A stretch of 47,721 bases of DNA, from the NCBI GenBank assembly GCA_964634645.1, contig CAZWKI010000002.1:266-47986 (forward strand). The letters run 5' to 3'. The notes beneath the pieces were generated by a model. That model saw nothing but the letters and a program-made list of their open reading frames with translations, was not told the origin of the DNA and did no database searches. The translations under genes were made by a program, and so were the position numbers. Below are positions 287 through 40,809 of this stretch, in pieces. The stretch is from an uncultured Gammaproteobacteria bacterium (lineage in GTDB: Bacteria > Patescibacteriota > Patescibacteriia > UBA1558 > S5-K13). The stretch's first letter is position 1, and each line of letters opens with the position of its first letter.

Positions 287-541
287 GGGCGTGTAGCTCA
301 GTTGGTTAGAGCGCAACACTGACCCGCCTCCCGAAGTACAAACACAAATCAATTAAATTGAAAACTTTATTATCTATTGTTGGAGGGCGCATAGCTCAGT
401 TGGTTAGAGCGCAACACTGATAATGTTGAGGTCCCAAGTTCAACTCTTGGTGCGCCCACCAACAGTTGATAATACTGTTGTCCTTCGTACGGAGGGCAGG
501 TAATGTTGAGGTCCCAAGTTCGATCCTTGGCACGCCCACCA
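287..541 (+). tRNA. tRNA-Ile(GAU) interrupted between anticodon positions 35/36 by a 178-nt insert (323-500)
   Basis: Halves 287-322 and 501-541 join into a perfect 77-nt cloverleaf with encoded CCA. The ends of the insert are complementary to each other. Confidence 0.6.
385..461 (+). tRNA. tRNA-Ile(GAU), complete, lying inside the insert of the outer tRNA-Ile
   Basis: Hand-folded cloverleaf: GGGCGCA/TGCGCCC acceptor, anticodon loop CTGATAA, TTCAACT T-loop, CCA end. Confidence 0.9.
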
Positions 542-967: not shown

Positions 968-1032
968 GGTGGGACGATAAGTTTATCCCGCCGAAGCTTT
1001 AGTGAAGGCGGGAAGTCCCACCACCCCGACCA
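968..1032 (+). pseudogene. tRNA-Pro 3' fragment (T-arm, acceptor 3' strand and CCA) with a 28-nt GC hairpin (986-1013) inserted in the T-loop
   Basis: 1014-1032 AGTCCCACCACCCCGACCA is identical to the 3' end of tRNA-Pro(UGG). GGTGGGA at 968-974 pairs with TCCCACC. Confidence 0.7.
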
Positions 1033-1087
1033 TTCGACTCATCCCACTTTGTAGGATTCGCTCATGGTCTTCGACCAAAATTGAAAT

Positions 1088-1135
1088 ACAGATTAAATCT
1101 GTTTTTTTATTTACCAAAAAATTATAAAGTGATAA
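1088..1135 (+). repeat. 48-nt direct repeat (left copy) bracketing the TPR insert
   Basis: 44/48 identical to 3397-3444. Contains a weak ACAGA..TCTGT hairpin followed by a T-run. Confidence 0.8.
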
Positions 1136-1156
1136 TATTATATTAATTATATTAAT

Positions 1157-3109: not shown

Positions 3110-3396
3110 AACGGCAACCAGTTTTGCTAGCACGTAATTATACGACGACAAAAACGAGAGCAAGACGTAGATTCCTTTTTCCTCCACCCACATCCTTCTC
3201 GTCCCGCTAAGCGGGATCGCCCCGACAATTCTTCGTTCCGTGAAGCGGAACTTCGAATGGCGCGCCACTCCTTTGAAACTTTAAGTGAAAAAGGAAGCTA
3301 TTCGACTTTTCGAAGAAGAAGAAAGAATGGTCCACCGAAGATTTCTTGTTTATCGTAACTTTAGTGGAGATAGAAGCGAAGGTGGACACGCAACAA

Positions 3397-3444
3397 ACAG
3401 ATAAACTCTGTTTTTTTGTTTACCAAAAAATTATAAAATGATAA
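3397..3444 (+). repeat. 48-nt direct repeat (right copy)
   Basis: See 1088-1135. A third partial copy lies at about 910-935. Confidence 0.8.
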
Positions 3445-3467
3445 AATCTATAAATAACATATATAAG

Positions 3468-4443: not shown

Positions 4444-4533
4444 ATTGCTAGATAATTGTTGTTCTGCTAAAATTATATAGAAATATAAATTATTGGCATT
4501 TTCTTATACATTGAATACTCTCAAAATCTGCCA

Positions 4534-4562
4534 TTGACACTATATTGATTTGCCCCTATAAT
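4534..4562 (+). promoter_or_regulatory. consensus sigma70-type promoter TTGACA-N17-TATAAT
   Basis: Exact hexamers at 4534-4539 and 4557-4562. Confidence 0.7.
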
Positions 4563-4592
4563 TTCTTTATAAAATTTAAAGAAAATAAGACT

Positions 4593-4955
4593 ATGAATAA
4601 AAAAACACTTAAACAAATTAAAGAAAATTTATTAAAGGAAAAAGAAGATTTAATAAAAGAATTAAATAGTTTCGCAAAAAAGAACACAAATGTTGAGAAT
4701 GAATATGATGCTAAATTTCCAGATTATGGAGATGACGAAGATGACAATGCATCTGAGGTAGCTGATTTTGAAAGCGATCTTTATTTAGAAAAGACTCTTG
4801 AAAAATCTCTTGAAAAGGTTGATGAGGCTCTAAAAATAATTGACAAAGGAACATATGGAAAATGCATTGTATGTGGAAAATCAATTCCAGAAGAAAGACT
4901 AGTAGCATTCCCTACTGCAAACAAATGCATGGACTGCAAAAAGAAAACTTTATAA
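4593..4955 (+). CDS. DksA/TraR-family C4 zinc-finger protein
   Basis: C-terminal CxxC-N17-CxxC (CIVCGKSIPEERLVAFPTANKCMDC). ATG at 4593 was chosen because the tracked TTG at 4545 lies inside the promoter. Confidence 0.8.
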   Translation: MNKKTLKQIKENLLKEKEDLIKELNSFAKKNTNVENEYDAKFPDYGDDEDDNASEVADFESDLYLEKTLEKSLEKVDEALKIIDKGTYGKCIVCGKSIPEERLVAFPTANKCMDCKKKTL

Positions 4956-4959
4956 AAAA

Positions 4960-5436
4960 ATGAAACAAAAAATTATCTCTATATCACTATTTTCTTTTTG
5001 TCTATTTATAATAGATAGAGCATCAAAATATTTAGCTTTAAATAAACTTCCATCTTATGGGGTTTATTTTTTTGAAAAAATAATTTATCTTAAATTAGAA
5101 AAAAACCTCGGCATTGCTTTTGGAATAGCTTTACCAAAAATATTTATAATTACTTTGACAATTATAATAATATTTTTATTGTTTTATTTTTTTATTAAGT
5201 ATTATAAGAAACAAAATAATCTTATTTGTTTATTGATTTTAATAGTTATAATCGGGGCAATAAGCAATCTCTTAGATAGGTTGTTTCATGGATATGTAAT
5301 TGATTTTATAAATATTTCAATTATTCCTGTCTTTAATTTGGCTGATTTTTATATATTTGTTTCTATGGTGATCTATATAATCTTGGAATTTAAACACAAA
5401 AAAACACCCCTCGAAGAATCAAAAGGTGTTTCTTAA
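4960..5436 (+). CDS. lspA: lipoprotein signal peptidase II
   Basis: Four-TM layout with NLGIAFG and NLLDRL...GYVIDFI...FNLAD motifs. Confidence 0.85.
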   Translation: MKQKIISISLFSFCLFIIDRASKYLALNKLPSYGVYFFEKIIYLKLEKNLGIAFGIALPKIFIITLTIIIIFLLFYFFIKYYKKQNNLICLLILIVIIGAISNLLDRLFHGYVIDFINISIIPVFNLADFYIFVSMVIYIILEFKHKKTPLEESKGVS

Positions 5437-6478: not shown

Positions 6479-6832
6479 CTAATATTCTAGTATTTTTATG
6501 CTTGCTTTTTTGCTTTTTAAATCAAGAAACACAAATACAAACAAAAGTTCGAAGTCGTTATCAACATCTCTATCCATTAAGTAATACAAAATTGATTTTT
6601 CAAGACGTTGTAATTTATAATATGAAATTGAGTCTTCCAAATCACCGTATTGAAAATTCGTTCTTGTTTTTACTTCTATAAAATATAATATTTTATCTTT
6701 TTCTGCCAAAACATCTATTTCGCCATAGCGAAAATAAATATTTCTATTCAAAATTTTATAACAGTGCTTTTCTAAATATCTTATAGCAATATCCTCCCCA
6801 AGTTTTCCTGTCTTTTGATTATATTTTTTCAT
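6479..6832 (-). CDS. yraN: YraN-family (UPF0102) endonuclease
   Basis: GKLGEDIAIRYLEK...GEIDVLAEKD..LYFIEVKTR motifs. Confidence 0.85.
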   Translation of the reverse strand: MKKYNQKTGKLGEDIAIRYLEKHCYKILNRNIYFRYGEIDVLAEKDKILYFIEVKTRTNFQYGDLEDSISYYKLQRLEKSILYYLMDRDVDNDFELLFVFVFLDLKSKKASIKILEY

Positions 6833-6876: not shown

Positions 6877-6907
6877 CCTGCCCGCCGAAGCCTTGGCGAA
6901 GGCGGGA
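6877..6907. repeat. GC-rich hairpin element CCTGCCCGCCGAAGCCTTGGCGAAGGCGGGA
   Basis: Member of the recurrent TCCCGCC...GGCGGGA family. Intergenic. Confidence 0.7.
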
Positions 6908-6981
6908 AAATAAAAAGTCGCTCATTGCGACCCTTATCTTAAAACCCTAAAATCTAAAACCTAGACCCTAAACCCTAAACT

Positions 6982-7386
6982 CTAATCTATATATTTCTCA
7001 TACATTTTTCTCTTTGCATCTTCTTGCCTTAACTTTGGAACTTTTACAAGATAGTGCTGAATAGCTGTAATAAGCCAAGATAACATTATTATCCACCACA
7101 AAATAAGTACAAACCTCATCTGGAAATATGGAATTCTTACTTTTCTAAAAAATATCAAAAATAAATTTATTACACCAGTTGTTATAGCAATGTCTGATAT
7201 CTTTATAATAAGAGATTTCTGGTATCTATCAATTTTCTTTCTAAACCAGGATTTTTTTATTAAATACTCTTTTATTATAAGAGAGAAAACTAGTAAAAAA
7301 ATAGAGGTCGAAATAATAACAACAAAAGTGCTATTTTTTAAAATGGGTGGATAAGCGTCAAATAAATATTGAAAATATATGTCCAT
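6982..7386 (-). CDS. hypothetical integral membrane protein
   Basis: 134-aa ORF with several TM segments, abutting the methyltransferase gene. Confidence 0.6.
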   Translation of the reverse strand: MDIYFQYLFDAYPPILKNSTFVVIISTSIFLLVFSLIIKEYLIKKSWFRKKIDRYQKSLIIKISDIAITTGVINLFLIFFRKVRIPYFQMRFVLILWWIIMLSWLITAIQHYLVKVPKLRQEDAKRKMYEKYID

Positions 7387-30686: not shown

Positions 30687-30721
30687 TGGTATCCCGGCTA
30701 GGAATCGAACCTAGATCCACA
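30687..30721 (-). pseudogene. tRNA-Arg(UCU) 3' fragment (positions 41-76)
   Basis: 35 nt identical to 30788-30822. Confidence 0.8.
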
Positions 30722-30787
30722 ATATATAATTTTAAAAGATTAATAAATTTTATAAATCCAAATGTTTCTTTATTTTTCTCTTACTTA

Positions 30788-30862
30788 TGGTATCCCGGCT
30801 AGGAATCGAACCTAGATCCACAGCTTAGAAGGCTGTTGTTCTATCCGTTGAACTACCAGGAC
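30788..30862 (-). tRNA. tRNA-Arg(UCU)
   Basis: Reverse complement folds as GTCCTGG...loop CTTCTAA...TTCGATT...CCGGGAT-A-CCA. Confidence 0.9.
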
Positions 30863-31042
30863 AACATAAATAAGAGAAAAATTATCAAAGCTTATCCCGC
30901 AAATGTCTACGAGCATTAGCGAGTAGCAACATTTGCGAGGACCCCGCGAAAGTTGAATATAATATTAGTTTTCTTGCGGGACCCCAAAAATAATATTCGC
31001 TTCATTCCGCAGAGCGAAATTTCGCTCATTTATTTTGTGGGG

Positions 31043-31077
31043 GAAGGCTGTTGTTCTATCCGTTGAACTACCAGGAC
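31043..31077 (-). pseudogene. tRNA-Arg(UCU) 5' fragment (positions 1-35)
   Basis: 35 nt identical to the 5' part of the complete copy. Breaks after anticodon position 35. Confidence 0.8.
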
Positions 31078-32194: not shown

Positions 32195-32743
32195 ATGGCA
32201 GATACAAACAATTCCGAAGATTTATCAAAAAAAATAAACGAATTCGTAGAAAAAGTTGATCACATGAAAAAACAAGAAAAAATGGATCTTTCATCTGATC
32301 AAGATTTGAGCATCGCAATAATGAATCTTATAAGCATTGAAGAGCATTTCTTTTTTTCTGGCGCAAAGACAAGAAACAATGATTATTACGACCTGATAAA
32401 AGATGTTCGCGAAATGAGAAAGGAATTATTAAAAAAAATAATAAAAGAATATGAGGGAGAAGTTTGGTGCATCTCAAAACATCTACTTGCTGCATCAATG
32501 CGACTTATGGAAGTTGGCACAAAACAACTTGGAATGGATAAAAAAGAAGAGGCTTATGAATTATTTGAAAAAGCATACAATCTATATTCTTTGTTCTGGG
32601 GAATAAACATGAAATTATTAAACGTTGGGGACATAAAAAAAATAGATGACGAATCTCTAAATAAAAAAGACACTGAAAAAAAAGGGTTTTTTGGAAAACT
32701 CGGCGCACTTGTAAAAAAAGCCATAGATTGCTGTATTGAATAA
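32195..32743 (+). CDS. hypothetical protein
   Basis: 182-aa ORF. Terminator lies at 32764-32798. Confidence 0.6.
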   Translation: MADTNNSEDLSKKINEFVEKVDHMKKQEKMDLSSDQDLSIAIMNLISIEEHFFFSGAKTRNNDYYDLIKDVREMRKELLKKIIKEYEGEVWCISKHLLAASMRLMEVGTKQLGMDKKEEAYELFEKAYNLYSLFWGINMKLLNVGDIKKIDDESLNKKDTEKKGFFGKLGALVKKAIDCCIE

Positions 32744-32796
32744 ATTAAAATATACAAAAAGTAAAAATCCCCGAATATTACTTCGGGGAATTTGTT

Positions 32797-33108
32797 TTAT
32801 TGAACCCCCAAGGCTTTCTTAACCCTGGGTTTGTGCAGATCTGGGGTTTTTATTTGAAAACCCTCACTTTTCCAATTTAAAATTTTACCTGATCGCATGG
32901 CTCCAGCACCAAATATTCCAGTAACATCGTTCATTTGGGACATAACTATGTTAAGAAGTTTGGCGTGAGTTGAAACACTAGAAGAACAAGTTACAAGCAC
33001 ATCTTTACTTTTTAATTGAAGACACAAAAATTTGTGAACCTTATCAAGGTGTTCTTCTGCTGAATAATTCATGATTTCGGACTCTGAGTCCAAGAAATAC
33101 ACTTCCAT
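32797..33108 (-). CDS. hypothetical protein
   Basis: 103-aa ORF preceded by AAAGGAGGA. Confidence 0.55.
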   Translation of the reverse strand: MEVYFLDSESEIMNYSAEEHLDKVHKFLCLQLKSKDVLVTCSSSVSTHAKLLNIVMSQMNDVTGIFGAGAMRSGKILNWKSEGFQIKTPDLHKPRVKKALGVQ

Positions 33109-33195
33109 GTGGATCCTCCTTTTATAATAAATAAATTACTACTTGTTATAAAATTTGTCAACATAAAAACACTGCTTTAAACAGTGTGCTTTTAA

Positions 33196-33272
33196 TGGTG
33201 GGTCCTATAGGATTCGAACCTATGGCCTTCTCGGTGTAAACGAGACGCTCTAACCAACTGAGCCAAGGACCC
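33196..33272 (-). tRNA. tRNA-Val(UAC)
   Basis: Reverse complement folds as GGGTCCT..., loop TTTACAC, TTCGAAT, CCA. Confidence 0.9.
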
Positions 33273-33310
33273 AAAAGATTTTTAATTTACAATTTACTAT
33301 TTTCAAATAA

Positions 33311-33378
33311 TGGGTCCAACTGTCGTAGTTAAACGGAGATCCCGCATAAGTGAAACGCTTGCGGGAAGCCAAGGACCC
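33311..33378 (-). pseudogene. tRNA-Val 5' fragment with a GC hairpin (33340-33366) inserted after position 12
   Basis: 33367-33378 equals tRNA positions 1-12, and the same upstream spacer is present. CAGTTGG follows after the insert. Confidence 0.7.
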
Positions 33379-33387
33379 AAAATATTT

Positions 33388-33648
33388 TTAATTTATTATT
33401 TTCAATTTACAATTTATCAAATTTTCTTTTTCAATTCTTGATAATTTTTTAATTTGCCTCTCCCTTTTCATTGCATCTATTTTATTTTCAAATTTTTCAT
33501 AATATACAATCTTAACGGGCTTTCTATATTTTGTATATTTTGCACCGCCTCCGGTATTGTGTTTATTTTCTCTTGATTTCAAATCTTTACAATATCCAGT
33601 ATATAATGTTTTGTCACTACAAAGGGCTATATATACATAAAATATCAT
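33388..33648 (-). CDS. GIY-YIG nuclease-domain protein (single domain, 86 aa)
   Basis: FYVYIALCSDKTLYTGYCKDLKSRENKHN ... RERQIKK. Confidence 0.85.
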   Translation of the reverse strand: MIFYVYIALCSDKTLYTGYCKDLKSRENKHNTGGGAKYTKYRKPVKIVYYEKFENKIDAMKRERQIKKLSRIEKENLINCKLKIIN

Positions 33649-33683
33649 AAATAATTTTATTTTATAATATCTAAATAGAATAA

Positions 33684-33705
33684 ATGGTGGACTTGGTGGG
33701 AAACC
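33684..33705 (-). pseudogene. tRNA-Ala(UGC) 3' fragment
   Basis: ATGGTGGACTTGGTGGGA is identical to the 3' end of the complete gene at 34519. It is followed by AACC after a 4-nt gap. Confidence 0.7.
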
Positions 33706-33823
33706 ATTGGAGATATATTATCATGGAATTAAAGCTTTGGCAAGAATTAAAATTAATAAATTGAATAATAAAAAACGATGATATTTCTAAAAACATCATC
33801 GCCTAATTTTGCCATTCCTTGTT

Positions 33824-34027
33824 TTACCATTTCATACGACTCATAAGATCGGCTATAATATCGGCTGGTGTTATACGTTGAAGTCCTTTTTCAGTCATAA
33901 CATAAACTTCTTTGTTTAGACAGCTAATATCATATTTTGTTTCTTTCGGTTGCCCCCGTGTTGAGTCGTCTATTGGTTTTTGCTCTGAATCACCTTGTAA
34001 TTTTTCATGATTACTTTCTGTAACCAT
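33824..34027 (-). CDS. hypothetical 67-aa protein
   Basis: GGAGGAG Shine-Dalgarno sequence. Terminator lies downstream at about 33775-33810. Confidence 0.55.
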   Translation of the reverse strand: MVTESNHEKLQGDSEQKPIDDSTRGQPKETKYDISCLNKEVYVMTEKGLQRITPADIIADLMSRMKW

Positions 34028-34109
34028 ATCTCCTCCTAAAACTTTCTAGACTTAATTATTATTTATCCTATCACTTATCTTAATTTTGTAAATAGACAAA
34101 CAAAAAACA

Positions 34110-34352
34110 CTAAATTAATCTTTTTTTCATAAACGCTATTCCTGAGCCACTCTTCAAATATTTTTCAAATCCTACGGCTTTTAATTTATCTTCAAACACA
34201 GCATAAAAAATTATTTTTAGTGGTTTTATATTGCGCGTTGAACCTACCTTACCAGAATTATGATAGAATATTCTTTTTTTCAAATTCGTAGTAAAACCCT
34301 TATAAATTCTATTGTTATATTTTTTACTTCTTAAAATATAGACGTAATACAT
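34110..34352 (-). CDS. GIY-YIG nuclease-domain protein (single domain, about 80 aa)
   Basis: MYYVYILRSKKYNNRIYKGFTTNLKKRIFYHN. Confidence 0.85.
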   Translation of the reverse strand: MYYVYILRSKKYNNRIYKGFTTNLKKRIFYHNSGKVGSTRNIKPLKIIFYAVFEDKLKAVGFEKYLKSGSGIAFMKKRLI

Positions 34353-34518
34353 AAAAATAAAAATCACTTATAAAATAAGCGACCCTTTGATTAATTTTAA
34401 ACTCCTGTGATTCACTACTTGGGTACACCATCCGAAACTCAAAATTAATATGTATATATAAAATCAGATTGATGTCCTTCGCTAAAGCTGCGGACATCAT
34501 CTTCACTAAAGTGAAGGA

Positions 34519-34595
34519 TGGTGGACTTGGTGGGATTCGAACCCACGACCCTCTGCTTGCAAAGCAGATGCTCTAACCAACTGAGCCACAAGCCC
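34519..34595 (-). tRNA. tRNA-Ala(UGC)
   Basis: G3:U70 pair, loop TTTGCAA, TTCGAAT, CCA. Confidence 0.9.
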
Positions 34596-34669
34596 ATAGT
34601 TTAATTTAAAATTAAATATTTCAAATTACAAAATAAATTTTAATATTCTTGACTCTGACGAAGTTAGTT

Positions 34670-34720
34670 TAACCAACTGCCTGTCCGCCATAGCGTAGCG
34701 AAGGCGGAAGCCACAAGCCC
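34670..34720 (-). pseudogene. tRNA-Ala 5' fragment (positions 1-22) with a 29-nt hairpin insert (34680-34708) after position 12
   Basis: AGCCACAAGCCC and TAACCAACTG match the real gene on either side of CCTGTCCGCCATAGCGTAGCGAAGGCGGA. Confidence 0.75.
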
Positions 34721-34765: not shown

Positions 34766-34850
34766 TGGTGCCCGGAAGAGGACTCGAACCTCCAAGCCAC
34801 AAAGGCACATGCACCTCAAGCATGCGCGTATACCATTCCGCCATCCGGGC
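34766..34850 (-). tRNA. tRNA-Leu(GAG)
   Basis: 85 nt, long variable arm, loop TTGAGGT. Confidence 0.9.
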
Positions 34851-34865
34851 TTGGATTTTCAAAAA

Positions 34866-35195
34866 TTAAATAGAAATTTTTTTAAGTCTTTTCTTGTAAT
34901 TTCTAAGATAATATAGCTTTGATTTATTGGATTTTATCTTGCTTTTTATTTCAATTTTCTCTACTAATGGAGAATTAATTGGATATATTTTTTCAACACC
35001 AACTCCATTTGAAACTTTTCGAACTGTAATTGTTGCTCCAAATTCTTTTCCGTGTTTTCTTGCAATTACAATGCCTTCAAAAATCTGTATTCTTTGTTTT
35101 TCTTCTCCCTTTGCATTTTTCTCTTTAATTTTTTCATGAACCCTTACAACCATACCTGGTTTTATATCAAGTTCTTGCTGTTTTTCTTTTGTCAT
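34866..35195 (-). CDS. rplS: 50S ribosomal protein L19
   Basis: [15 protein letters not shown]....TITVRK...[11 protein letters not shown]. Confidence 0.9.
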
Positions 35196-40630: not shown

Positions 40631-40705
40631 TGGTACCCTCGCTAGGAATTGAACCCAGATTTTATCCTTAGGACGGATCTGTTCTATCCGTTGAACTACG
40701 AGGGC
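40631..40705 (-). tRNA. tRNA-Arg(CCU)
   Basis: Reverse complement folds as a cloverleaf with loop GTCCTAA and TTCAATT. G1:U72 wobble. Confidence 0.8.
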
Positions 40706-40740: not shown

Positions 40741-40809
40741 TGTTCTATAAACAAACTTCTCGTCCCGCCGAAATTTTAATGAAGGCGGGATCCGTTGAAC
40801 TACGAGGGC
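40741..40809 (-). pseudogene. tRNA-Arg(CCU) 5' fragment (positions 1-27) with a 42-nt insert in the D-loop containing hairpin 40763-40790
   Basis: TCCGTTGAACTACGAGGGC and TGTTCTAT match the real gene on either side of the insert. Confidence 0.75.

Follow-up and report, generated by a model that had tools for sequence, protein, structure and literature searches.

Across genomes of many phyla, the 3′-end of a tRNA gene, one or more polar hairpins and a minimal GIY-YIG nuclease gene form a conserved three-part association, and one instance of it lies in a tRNA operon within a 47,721-nt stretch of DNA (hereafter the window; contig CAZWKI010000002.1 of assembly GCA_964634645.1, positions 266 to 47,986 of the forward strand, from an uncultured bacterium placed by GTDB in the Patescibacteriota). 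This operon (rplS, tRNA-Leu, tRNA-Ala, ..., tRNA-Val) carries two different single-domain GIY-YIG genes, here termed GIY1 and GIY2, interleaved with broken tRNA copies. The insertion site is polymorphic among relatives, repeats derived from the target surround the cassette in several genomes, and hairpins are inserted into dead tRNA copies. We propose, with somewhat more confidence than doubt, that the operon has been colonised by two minimal SLX1/UPF0213-type GIY-YIG genes behaving as selfish tRNA-associated cassettes, and that solo hairpin mini-elements also target tRNA genes; for the nuclease itself, a role in the mobility is what we infer.

Association of GIY2-type genes with tRNA 3′-ends and hairpins

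The GIY2 family was surveyed by a metagenome scan with its family alignment, which gave 80 loci of 30-69% G+C from many phyla. A tRNA gene lies within 300 nt of the GIY2-type gene in 46 of these loci. Upstream sequence of 300 nt or more is available for 69 loci; in 41 of them a tRNA on the same strand ends no more than 300 nt upstream of the gene, and in none does one on the opposite strand, against 1.5% for control positions in the same loci. The neighbouring tRNAs comprise at least 14 identities, with Ser the commonest, and the order tRNA-Ser, hairpin, GIY2-type gene is also found on a 3-Mb contig (L170). The gene averages 6% lower in G+C than its flanks and is the lower of the two in 52 of 55 loci. 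Two different GIY-YIG genes, which might act as a pair, recur close to one another, in tandem or flanking one tRNA, in L103 (3001-3490), L110 (619-1352), L147 (2116-2829) and L092 (203-2784), as they do in the window and in its relative L168.

The hairpins upstream of GIY2-type genes combine a variable ~7-bp stem with a 14-nt loop conserved as GAAGCYTTRGCGAA or its complement. The loop pattern, GAA-GC-YTTR-GC-GAA, can be read as a 3x3 internal loop (GAA/GAA) and an inner GC stem whose third pair covaries (T-A or C-G), topped by a small loop. Across 37 distinct copies 98% of the cells pair, and double-sided changes number 78 against 22 in shuffles, figures to be read with the selection of these copies for a stem of at least 5 bp, and so partly for pairing. 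In the 289 kb of GIY2 loci the loop motif was counted 72 times, 44 of these with a stem of at least 5 bp, whereas 582 kb of control loci of the GIY1 type contain it three times, always stemless. Of 78 strict hairpins in the GIY2 loci, 57 fall into the 250 nt upstream of the gene, which make up 7% of the sequence, and a hairpin stands within 60 nt of the 3′-end of 23 of the 44 GIY2-adjacent tRNAs versus 3 of 28 other tRNAs. A covariance model of the hairpin (R1) gave 135 matches in the loci, with a recurrent inverted (-,+) pair and a recurrent layout of tRNA 3′-end, hairpin, 30-60 nt, inverted hairpin, 5-35 nt and ATG. Since the hairpin occurs in both orientations on the sense strand, it is more likely to act at the DNA level than at the RNA level. 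Rfam matched only tRNA at E <= 1 in the window region and in 12 hairpin-rich loci. A REP/BIME-like array (repetitive extragenic palindrome/bacterial interspersed mosaic element) of six tandem copies of the hairpin motif TTCGCCAAGGC, with a 31-nt period, lies upstream of a GIY2-type gene at L157 468-700.

In the window, the initial annotation had defined the hairpin family by a CTTCRCTAAAG core. The core alone hardly exceeds chance (5 matches versus 1.65 expected), whereas the family survives on the covariance model, with five window matches at E <= 1e-4. Four of the five abut a tRNA or a tRNA fragment, namely behind tRNA-Ala and at the Ala 5′, Pro 3′ and Arg 5′ pieces. The best-scoring one (6879-6908, plus strand, 43.6 bits) lies 47 nt upstream of a YraN/UPF0102 (+NERD) nuclease gene (6479-6832, minus strand), and this second small nuclease family may share the GIY2-type hairpin. 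A run of CCCTAAA-like (telomere-repeat-like) heptamers directly follows that hairpin (6940-6990).

Signatures of insertion recur in other genomes of the survey. L147 reads tRNA-Lys, hairpin, GIY2-type gene, inverted motif, hairpin and a 16-nt copy of the tRNA 3′-end, and L159 has the same layout with tRNA-Glu and a 19-nt copy. In L110 the cassette is flanked by a 17-nt repeat, the 5′ piece of a tRNA-Glu is broken at nt 12/13 by the hairpin, and a second GIY-YIG gene stands upstream; L103 has tRNA-Ser, a hairpin, two GIY-YIG genes and a 49-nt copy spanning anticodon loop to 3′-end. L151 is nested: an old tRNA-Val is broken at nt 21/22 by a hairpin and at nt 57/58 by a GIY2-type gene, a new tRNA-Val and solo hairpin units, each ending in a 3′ copy. 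Two successive tRNA-Leu 3′ copies are found in L130, together with an array of solo hairpin-plus-repeat units of the kind also present in L151. No integrase was found inside any of the 0.35-0.8-kb cassettes, none lies between the flanking repeats, and the initial suspicion of a tRNA 3′ repeat-flanked cassette devoid of an integrase is thereby borne out in L147, L159, L110 and L103. The same hairpin appears to spread as solo mini-elements as well.

The tRNA operon of the window and its relatives

Both proteins consist of the catalytic domain only, without the separate DNA-binding or recognition module of homing endonucleases. GIY1 (33388-33648, minus strand, 86 aa, UPF0213-type) and GIY2 (34110-34352, minus strand, 80 aa) match Pfam PF01541 with E-values of 9e-17 and 3e-14 and scores of 61.5 and 53.4 bits against a cut-off of 22.6; the identity between the two is 35%. 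Both keep the catalytic Tyr, Tyr, Arg, His and Glu: Y6, Y16, G18, R26, H30 and E63 are invariant in the GIY1 family alignment, and Y17, G19, R27, H31 and E63, with Y5 nearly so, in that of GIY2. Profile searches of the PDB gave, for GIY1, the UPF0213 proteins BH0048 (E 5e-30) and EF2693 (E 6e-26), and for GIY2, BH0048 as the nearest (E 1e-13), then SLX1 (E 5e-8), with I-TevI marginal at E 0.11. These profiles indicate that both are minimal UPF0213/SLX1-type nucleases and not I-TevI-type homing endonucleases, so that of the two kinships first suggested the stand-alone UPF0213 one is retained and the I-TevI one is not. Dunin-Horkawicz et al. 2006 (PMC1564403) regarded prokaryotic Slx1-like proteins as GIY-YIG nucleases in their minimal form, reported cases in which they are fused to, or neighbour, a TrmH-like or a COG4123 methyltransferase, and suggested a role in RNA metabolism.

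All nine features that the initial annotation had placed at this locus were recovered, to within a few bases. On the minus strand, rplS (34866-35195; Pfam Ribosomal_L19) is followed by tRNA-Leu(GAG) (34766-34850; ARAGORN, Rfam), the first tRNA of the operon, and by a decayed tRNA-Ala 5′ copy (34650-34720) composed of nt 1-12 (34709-34720), a family hairpin at nt 12/13 (covariance-model match 34682-34710, E 8e-5) and CAGTTGGTTA (nt 13-22). Next comes the intact tRNA-Ala(UGC) (34519-34595; ARAGORN, Rfam), and 2 nt past its 3′-end the GIY2 cassette begins. The left end of the cassette (34470-34517) consists of a degenerate hairpin, CTTCACTTTAGTGAAG, and a canonical family hairpin, TGATGTCC-GCAGCTTTAGCGAA-GGACATCA; the two fold with -21.3 kcal/mol (z = -5.1), the covariance model matches 34470-34499 with 40.3 bits, and the same hairpin pair is present in L168. 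At the right junction (34096-34112), TAGTGTTTTTTGTTTGT overlaps the GIY2 stop codon and corresponds, in the alignment with the relatives L086, L087 and L168, to the 3′ half of the ancestral tRNA-Ala terminator.

Those syntenic relatives were found through exact-protein look-ups of GIY1 and GIY2 homologues. L086 (GIY1 73% identical) has the order rplS, tRNA-Leu, tRNA-Val, GIY1, tRNA-Ala, terminator, free of hairpins and fragments; L087 (GIY1 74%) has the same genes in this order and, in addition, insert-bearing 5′ fragments, one of Val and two of Ala; L168 (GIY1 78%, GIY2 78%) reads tRNA-Leu, a 132-aa open reading frame (ORF), tRNA-Val, GIY1, two Ala fragments, tRNA-Ala, two hairpins as in the window, and GIY2; and L083 (GIY1 82%) has GIY1 followed by tRNA-Val in a different left-hand context. 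In the junction alignment the window, L168, L086 and L087 are identical up to ...CCACCATC, past which L086 and L087 run into the terminator AAAAATACACTGTTAAAAGCAGTGTTTTTT (empty site), whereas L168 and the window carry ~0.4 kb of hairpins and GIY2 and rejoin at (C)AGTGTTTTTTGTT (occupied site), a comparison between species-level different genomes rather than between alleles of one population. The L168/window insertion has no repeat at its right junction. We read the alignment as entry of the GIY2 cassette directly behind tRNA-Ala in the common ancestor of the window genome and L168, where it appears to have replaced the 5′ half of the terminator.

Two earlier expectations are modified by these relatives. 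An empty site had been anticipated as tRNA-Ala directly followed by tRNA-Val; empty sites do exist in L086 and L087, but as tRNA-Ala followed by the terminator, and the Val/Ala order of the window is swapped relative to L086, L087 and L168. It had also been anticipated that the fragments might be absent from, or differently placed in, close relatives if they were unconnected with the nucleases: none occurs in L086, and L087 and L168 carry homologous ones. The 834-bp (0.8-kb) block between the intact tRNA-Ala and its leftover 3′-end, considered at first as one element inserted in the tRNA 3′ region, was rejected as a single insertion on the alignments with L086, L087 and L168. The block is composite: the cassette that the window shares with L168 measures ~0.4 kb, and past it the sequence picks up again in the 3′ half of the former tRNA-Ala terminator.

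ORF67 and the 18-nt Ala 3′ fragment lie outside this cassette. ORF67 (33824-34027, minus strand, 67 aa, with an AGGAGG ribosome-binding site) is a candidate gene without a match in Pfam, NCBIfam or PHROG; it is absent from L168 and has one homologue among 1.84 billion representatives, and as an orphan it is therefore not counted as part of the cassette. A terminator-like hairpin (33773-33804, minus strand) stands 3′ of it. The tRNA-Ala 3′ fragment (33684-33701, minus strand) is an exact 18-nt direct repeat of 34518-34535 (repeat search, BLAST) and possibly reaches GGTT, given a 4-nt T-loop deletion. Just upstream of this fragment and GIY1, a promoter-like site on the minus strand (33715-33743: TTGCCA, 17-nt spacer, TAATAT, with TG) was noticed, and GIY1 and tRNA-Val may therefore form a transcription unit of their own past the ORF67 terminator. 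GIY1 ends 9 nt short of the 5′-end of the following tRNA, a dead tandem tRNA-Val copy (33311-33378, minus strand) in which nt 1-12 and nt 13-19 are separated by a 44-nt insert of two hairpins at nt 12/13 and are followed by an internal deletion and ACCCA; the intact tRNA-Val(UAC) (33196-33272, minus strand; ARAGORN, Rfam) and its terminator (33169-33187) close the locus. Farther on, a sub-threshold Rfam match to the rimP leader (32713-32826, minus strand; 32.7 bits versus a gathering score of 47) spans the terminator-like hairpin after a 103-aa ORF and is probably a mere terminator. Neither this ORF nor GIY1 or GIY2 matched NCBIfam or PHROG. The window has 42 listed ORFs of 120 aa or more; 36 of them were scanned against Pfam and gave no integrase, recombinase or transposase and no Y1_Tnp match, in agreement with the initial annotation as to the integrase.

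The locus structure is not an assembly artefact, because L001, an assembly made independently, matches 1801 nt of it with 100% identity. The contig L002 (run SRR8925769) stops inside tRNA-Ala, a break probably caused by the repeated tRNA pieces during assembly.

Syntenic orthologues of GIY1 are found in L086, L087 and L168, and the genome scan with the GIY1 family alignment gave 80 loci, mostly from Firmicutes and Bathyarchaeia, with the gene wedged between tRNAs only in the Candidate Phyla Radiation (CPR), where its relatives lie between tRNA genes in five tRNA contexts. In L171 (GIY1 62% identical) the order is tRNA-Lys, GIY1, tRNA-Val(GAC), with the stop codon 1 nt from the tRNA. In L003 (3891-6745), the single Parcubacteria locus of the scan, tRNA-Tyr and GIY1 are followed by a tRNA-Thr 5′ half overlapping the gene end, 115 nt, and an intact tRNA-Thr; after the latter, a tyrosine-integrase-type ORF (about 4501-5393) and a DNA methyltransferase ORF, both judged by eye, resemble a classical island beside the nuclease gene. 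The tRNA immediately downstream of GIY1 is repeatedly the broken one. A conserved tRNA-related context was also sought for the Firmicutes orthologues, and their neighbourhoods showed none. GIY1 appears to be an older syntenic resident of the tRNA operon in this clade, wedged between two tRNA genes.

tRNA scars across the window

Comparing each tRNA with the window, together with a reading of the flanks, revealed scars at 6 of the 11 tRNA genes, four of them without a nearby nuclease gene; the scars are thus no peculiarity of the Val/Ala locus. The Ala and Val 5′ fragments each match their own tRNA over the first 12 nt only, which is weak alone (BLAST E 0.15), and both are broken at the identical point, GGCT | hairpin | CAGTTGG. 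The Val fragment belongs to a repeat of 51 nt at 84%, 39 nt of which are upstream flank, and its 5′ piece ends in ACCCA; it is therefore taken as a dead tandem tRNA-Val copy with an insertion and an internal deletion. L087 and L168 have homologous fragments that carry the same insert. The inserts at nt 12/13 of the Val and Ala copies of the three genomes fall into two families with conserved ends, and the same insert is found at nt 12/13 of the tRNA-Glu copy in L110.

Other tRNAs are interrupted elsewhere. A split outer tRNA-Ile (287-541, plus strand; halves 287-322 and 501-541, break at nt 35/36) encloses an intact tRNA-Ile (385-461), and its acceptor strands GGGCGTG/CACGCCC are complementary. 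A foreign replacement-tRNA cassette, with regard to the compensatory acceptor bases of the outer halves, and a duplication with compensatory change in the surviving copy would account for this nest equally well. The tRNA-Arg(UCU) nest (30687-31077, minus strand) comprises a 5′ half (31043-31077), three hairpins (30895-31042), nt 36-41, the intact gene (30788-30862) and a 3′ half (30687-30721), both halves being 100% identical to the intact gene. Downstream of the tRNA-Pro(UGG) gene, a family hairpin (985-1014, plus strand, 33.6 bits) abuts an 18-19-nt fragment of its 3′-end (1014-1032), and upstream of the intact tRNA-Arg(CCU) gene (40631-40705, minus strand) nt 1-20 of a 5′ fragment (40790-40809) run into a family hairpin (40762-40791). 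The breakpoints cluster at nt 12/13, 20-22, 35-37 and 56-60, positions within the three tRNA arms or at their margins, whatever the tRNA sequence. We interpret the Ala, Val, Ile, Pro and Arg fragments as duplicated tRNA copies interrupted at nt 12/13, 20-22, 35-37 or 56-60.

Some further features lie near these genes. The window starts with the 3′-end of a 16S rRNA (..GGATCACCTCCTTTCT), followed by the split and nested tRNA-Ile, tRNA-Phe and tRNA-Pro (1-903); no 23S rRNA gene occurs in the remaining 47 kb, and the rRNA genes are therefore unlinked. A second motif, TTCGACTC...GCTCA, recurs after tRNA 3′-ends or fragments (window 1033-1140 and 3390-3450; L087 4971-4990; L147 2887-2940), and a near-identical terminator-plus-flank sequence of ~60 nt is present twice in the window (about 1085-1140 and 3395-3450).

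Readings of the association and comparison with known systems

If the GIY-YIG genes are selfish cassettes, the insertions could arise as follows: (i) the nuclease would be transcribed by read-through from the tRNA promoter; (ii) it would cut structured DNA at the hairpin or at stem-loops that tRNA genes extrude; (iii) break repair by the host would copy the cassette or hairpin into the break and thereby duplicate tRNA segments; and (iv) only genomes retaining one intact tRNA copy would survive, which would therefore leave one intact gene beside the broken copies. A bolder version, which we advance tentatively and on balance doubt, is a new class of prokaryotic mobile element, in which an autonomous unit of ~0.35-0.45 kb, made of polar palindromic hairpins and an 80-aa SLX1-like GIY-YIG gene and accompanied by solo-hairpin derivatives, would find its targets by the stem-loop shape of tRNA genes (D-arm, anticodon loop, T-loop) instead of by sequence, insert with long target or partial tRNA duplications, and ride tRNA promoters.

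Several results weigh against selfish cassettes, besides the partial selection of the hairpin copies noted above. tRNA fragments are found in only 12 of 87 loci, and ~40% of the GIY2 loci have no tRNA within 300 nt, some of these being truncated contigs. Adjacency of GIY1 orthologues to tRNA genes is about 0 of 75 in the Firmicutes and archaeal loci, and the link between nucleases and tRNAs first proposed for both genes hence holds for GIY2 and for GIY1 in CPR but fails for GIY1 in Firmicutes and Archaea. No GIY2 homologue was found in phage and plasmid collections at E <= 1e-3, which leaves no evident horizontal vector. Inverted repeats were scored between the 80-nt stretches that precede the start and follow the stop of GIY2-type genes; the mean score was 7.1, versus 6.5 in shuffled sequence, with only L122 clear. 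The idea that the gene is always bracketed by terminal inverted repeats was dropped after this negative test, which is explained in part by the right-hand motif often lying inside a C-terminal ORF extension (L147, L159, L110); an inverted motif copy within 60 nt past the conserved domain was seen in only about 8 loci. An 80-aa GIY-YIG domain has no DNA-binding module and is incapable of strand transfer, and its nuclease activity is a prediction. Finally, the fusion or adjacency of Slx1-like genes to methyltransferases (PMC1564403) fits a cellular tRNA-related role equally well.

That cellular role is the main rival, to which we give a minor chance: the GIY-YIG proteins would be housekeeping factors acting on tRNA transcripts or genes (e.g. 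in processing or quality control) and co-transcribed with them, the hairpin would be a regulatory, terminator or processing element, and the scars would stem from unrelated recombination. The TrmH-like and COG4123 methyltransferase partners, the strict same-strand orientation and tight packing in tRNA operons (GIY1 stops 1-9 nt from the next tRNA), the synteny of GIY1 across relatives and the T-runs following some hairpins (L103, L170) all agree with it. It does not accommodate a hairpin in both orientations relative to the gene and inside dead tRNA copies, tRNA 3′ repeats flanking the cassette, the existence of both empty and occupied sites, partner tRNAs of at least 14 identities, or a gene G+C below that of the flanks. 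The hairpins could instead be moved by another enzyme, as REP-like or MITE-like (miniature inverted-repeat transposable element) sequences served by an unseen transposase (RAYT, IS200-type HUH) or a YraN-type nuclease, with the GIY-YIG genes as bystanders sharing a preference for tRNA flanks. We regard this as improbable, since the hairpins are concentrated directly upstream of GIY2 (57 of 78 within 250 nt) and near-absent from control loci, and no HUH or other transposase was found among the scanned window ORFs; their REP-like size, inverted pairs and tandem arrays (L157), the position of the best window hairpin upstream of a YraN/UPF0102 rather than a GIY-YIG gene, and the scars at tRNAs lacking a GIY-YIG gene in cis speak in its favour.

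The repeats described here begin in the T-loop or anticodon loop and continue to the end of the tRNA, as classical tRNA att sites do. The cassettes might accordingly be mini-islands, their tRNA 3′ repeats being attL/attR sites of tyrosine integrases that act in trans or were lost, with GIY2 as cargo and the fragments as relics of integration or excision, and the island beside the neighbouring tRNA-Thr in L003 does carry a putative integrase. One cargo family at 14 or more tRNA species would nevertheless need many matching attP/integrase pairs, no integrase was found among the scanned window ORFs or inside any cassette, 5′ fragments broken at nt 12/13 by an insert of one family are not att-type, and the L168/window insertion lacks a right-junction repeat, all of which makes this reading a poor prospect. 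Chance or misassembly, by which short AT-rich matches or mis-joined repeats would mimic fragments, is very improbable indeed: the insignificance of the 12-nt matches by themselves (E 0.15) and the contig of another run that breaks inside tRNA-Ala would suit it, but an independent assembly agrees completely over 1.8 kb, 18-nt and 35-nt repeats are exact and come with duplicated flanks, and homologous fragments exist in L087 and L168.

Stand-alone UPF0213/Slx1-like GIY-YIG proteins are among the commonest small bacterial proteins of unknown function, and the link to tRNA 3′-ends and hairpins makes a function testable. If the nuclease drives the insertions, the cassettes would be minimal selfish elements run by a nuclease class not known to mobilise bacterial DNA beyond introns and phage homing genes, and in the reduced genomes of CPR bacteria they would also give rise to duplicated tRNA genes, pseudogenes and rearranged operons; a new element class, if real, would supply the first biological role for the large prokaryotic UPF0213/Slx1-like family. 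In metagenome-assembled genomes, the scars and hairpins also account for breaks in the assembly and for false calls of partial tRNAs.

The literature searched contains no description of a tRNA/hairpin/GIY-YIG association and Rfam holds no such family; to our knowledge, no insertion-sequence family uses a GIY-YIG enzyme. The nearest known proteins, the stand-alone UPF0213/Slx1-like ones (COG2827, YhbQ/YazA type; BH0048, EF2693), share the single 80-100-aa domain with GIY1 and GIY2, but the same literature gives them no function, tRNA adjacency, hairpin partner or mobility, and the Firmicutes and archaeal members differ from GIY2 in having no tRNA link. Tyrosine-integrase islands resemble the cassettes in that an intact tRNA is followed by the insert and then by a direct repeat that begins in the T-loop or anticodon loop and covers the rest of the tRNA (18 nt in the window, 16 in L147, 19 in L159, 49 in L103, 17 in L110), and differ from them in that here no integrase was found, the inserts measure 0.35-0.8 kb, one cargo family sits at many tRNA species, and 5′ fragments carry internal inserts. 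Mobile endonuclease ORFs of fungal mitochondria (e.g. Allomyces atp6) duplicate the 3′-end of their host gene: an endonuclease gene lies in the 3′ part of a conserved gene, which is regenerated while the displaced 3′ fragment remains downstream, as in the cassettes, although there the host gene is protein-coding and organellar and the endonucleases are multi-domain.

Homing endonucleases of the I-TevI/Seg kind are similar in that GIY2 adjoins its putative target and that relatives have empty and occupied sites. T4 SegB, a homing endonuclease of the GIY-YIG type encoded by a free-standing gene among the tRNA genes of T4, cleaves tRNA-region DNA and drives the inheritance of its own locus (PMC2330249; PMC13096335), and it is reported to promote segmental amplification of anti-defence loci (2026 paper, PMC13096335). 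SegB matches the present case in being a GIY-YIG gene among tRNA genes, and its segmental amplification offers an analogue or precedent for the tandem tRNA duplications. It is phage-borne, with no reported hairpin partner or regenerated target, whereas GIY2 has no phage homologue at E <= 1e-3; SegB is also larger than GIY2 and has DNA-binding modules. In REP/REPIN-RAYT systems, likewise, one nuclease-type gene is flanked by short G+C-rich palindromes in inverted pairs or arrays, with dispersed non-autonomous copies, but RAYTs are HUH tyrosine transposases capable of strand transfer (PMC3116915, PMC3337134), whereas here the partner is a hydrolytic GIY-YIG enzyme, the palindromes share the conserved GAA/GAA internal loop and GC-YTTR-GC inner stem, and the targets are tRNA genes instead of generic intergenic DNA. 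We regard the cassettes as a variant of two known kinds, free-standing homing-type nuclease genes and REP-like elements with a dedicated enzyme; there is a real chance that they form a separate class.

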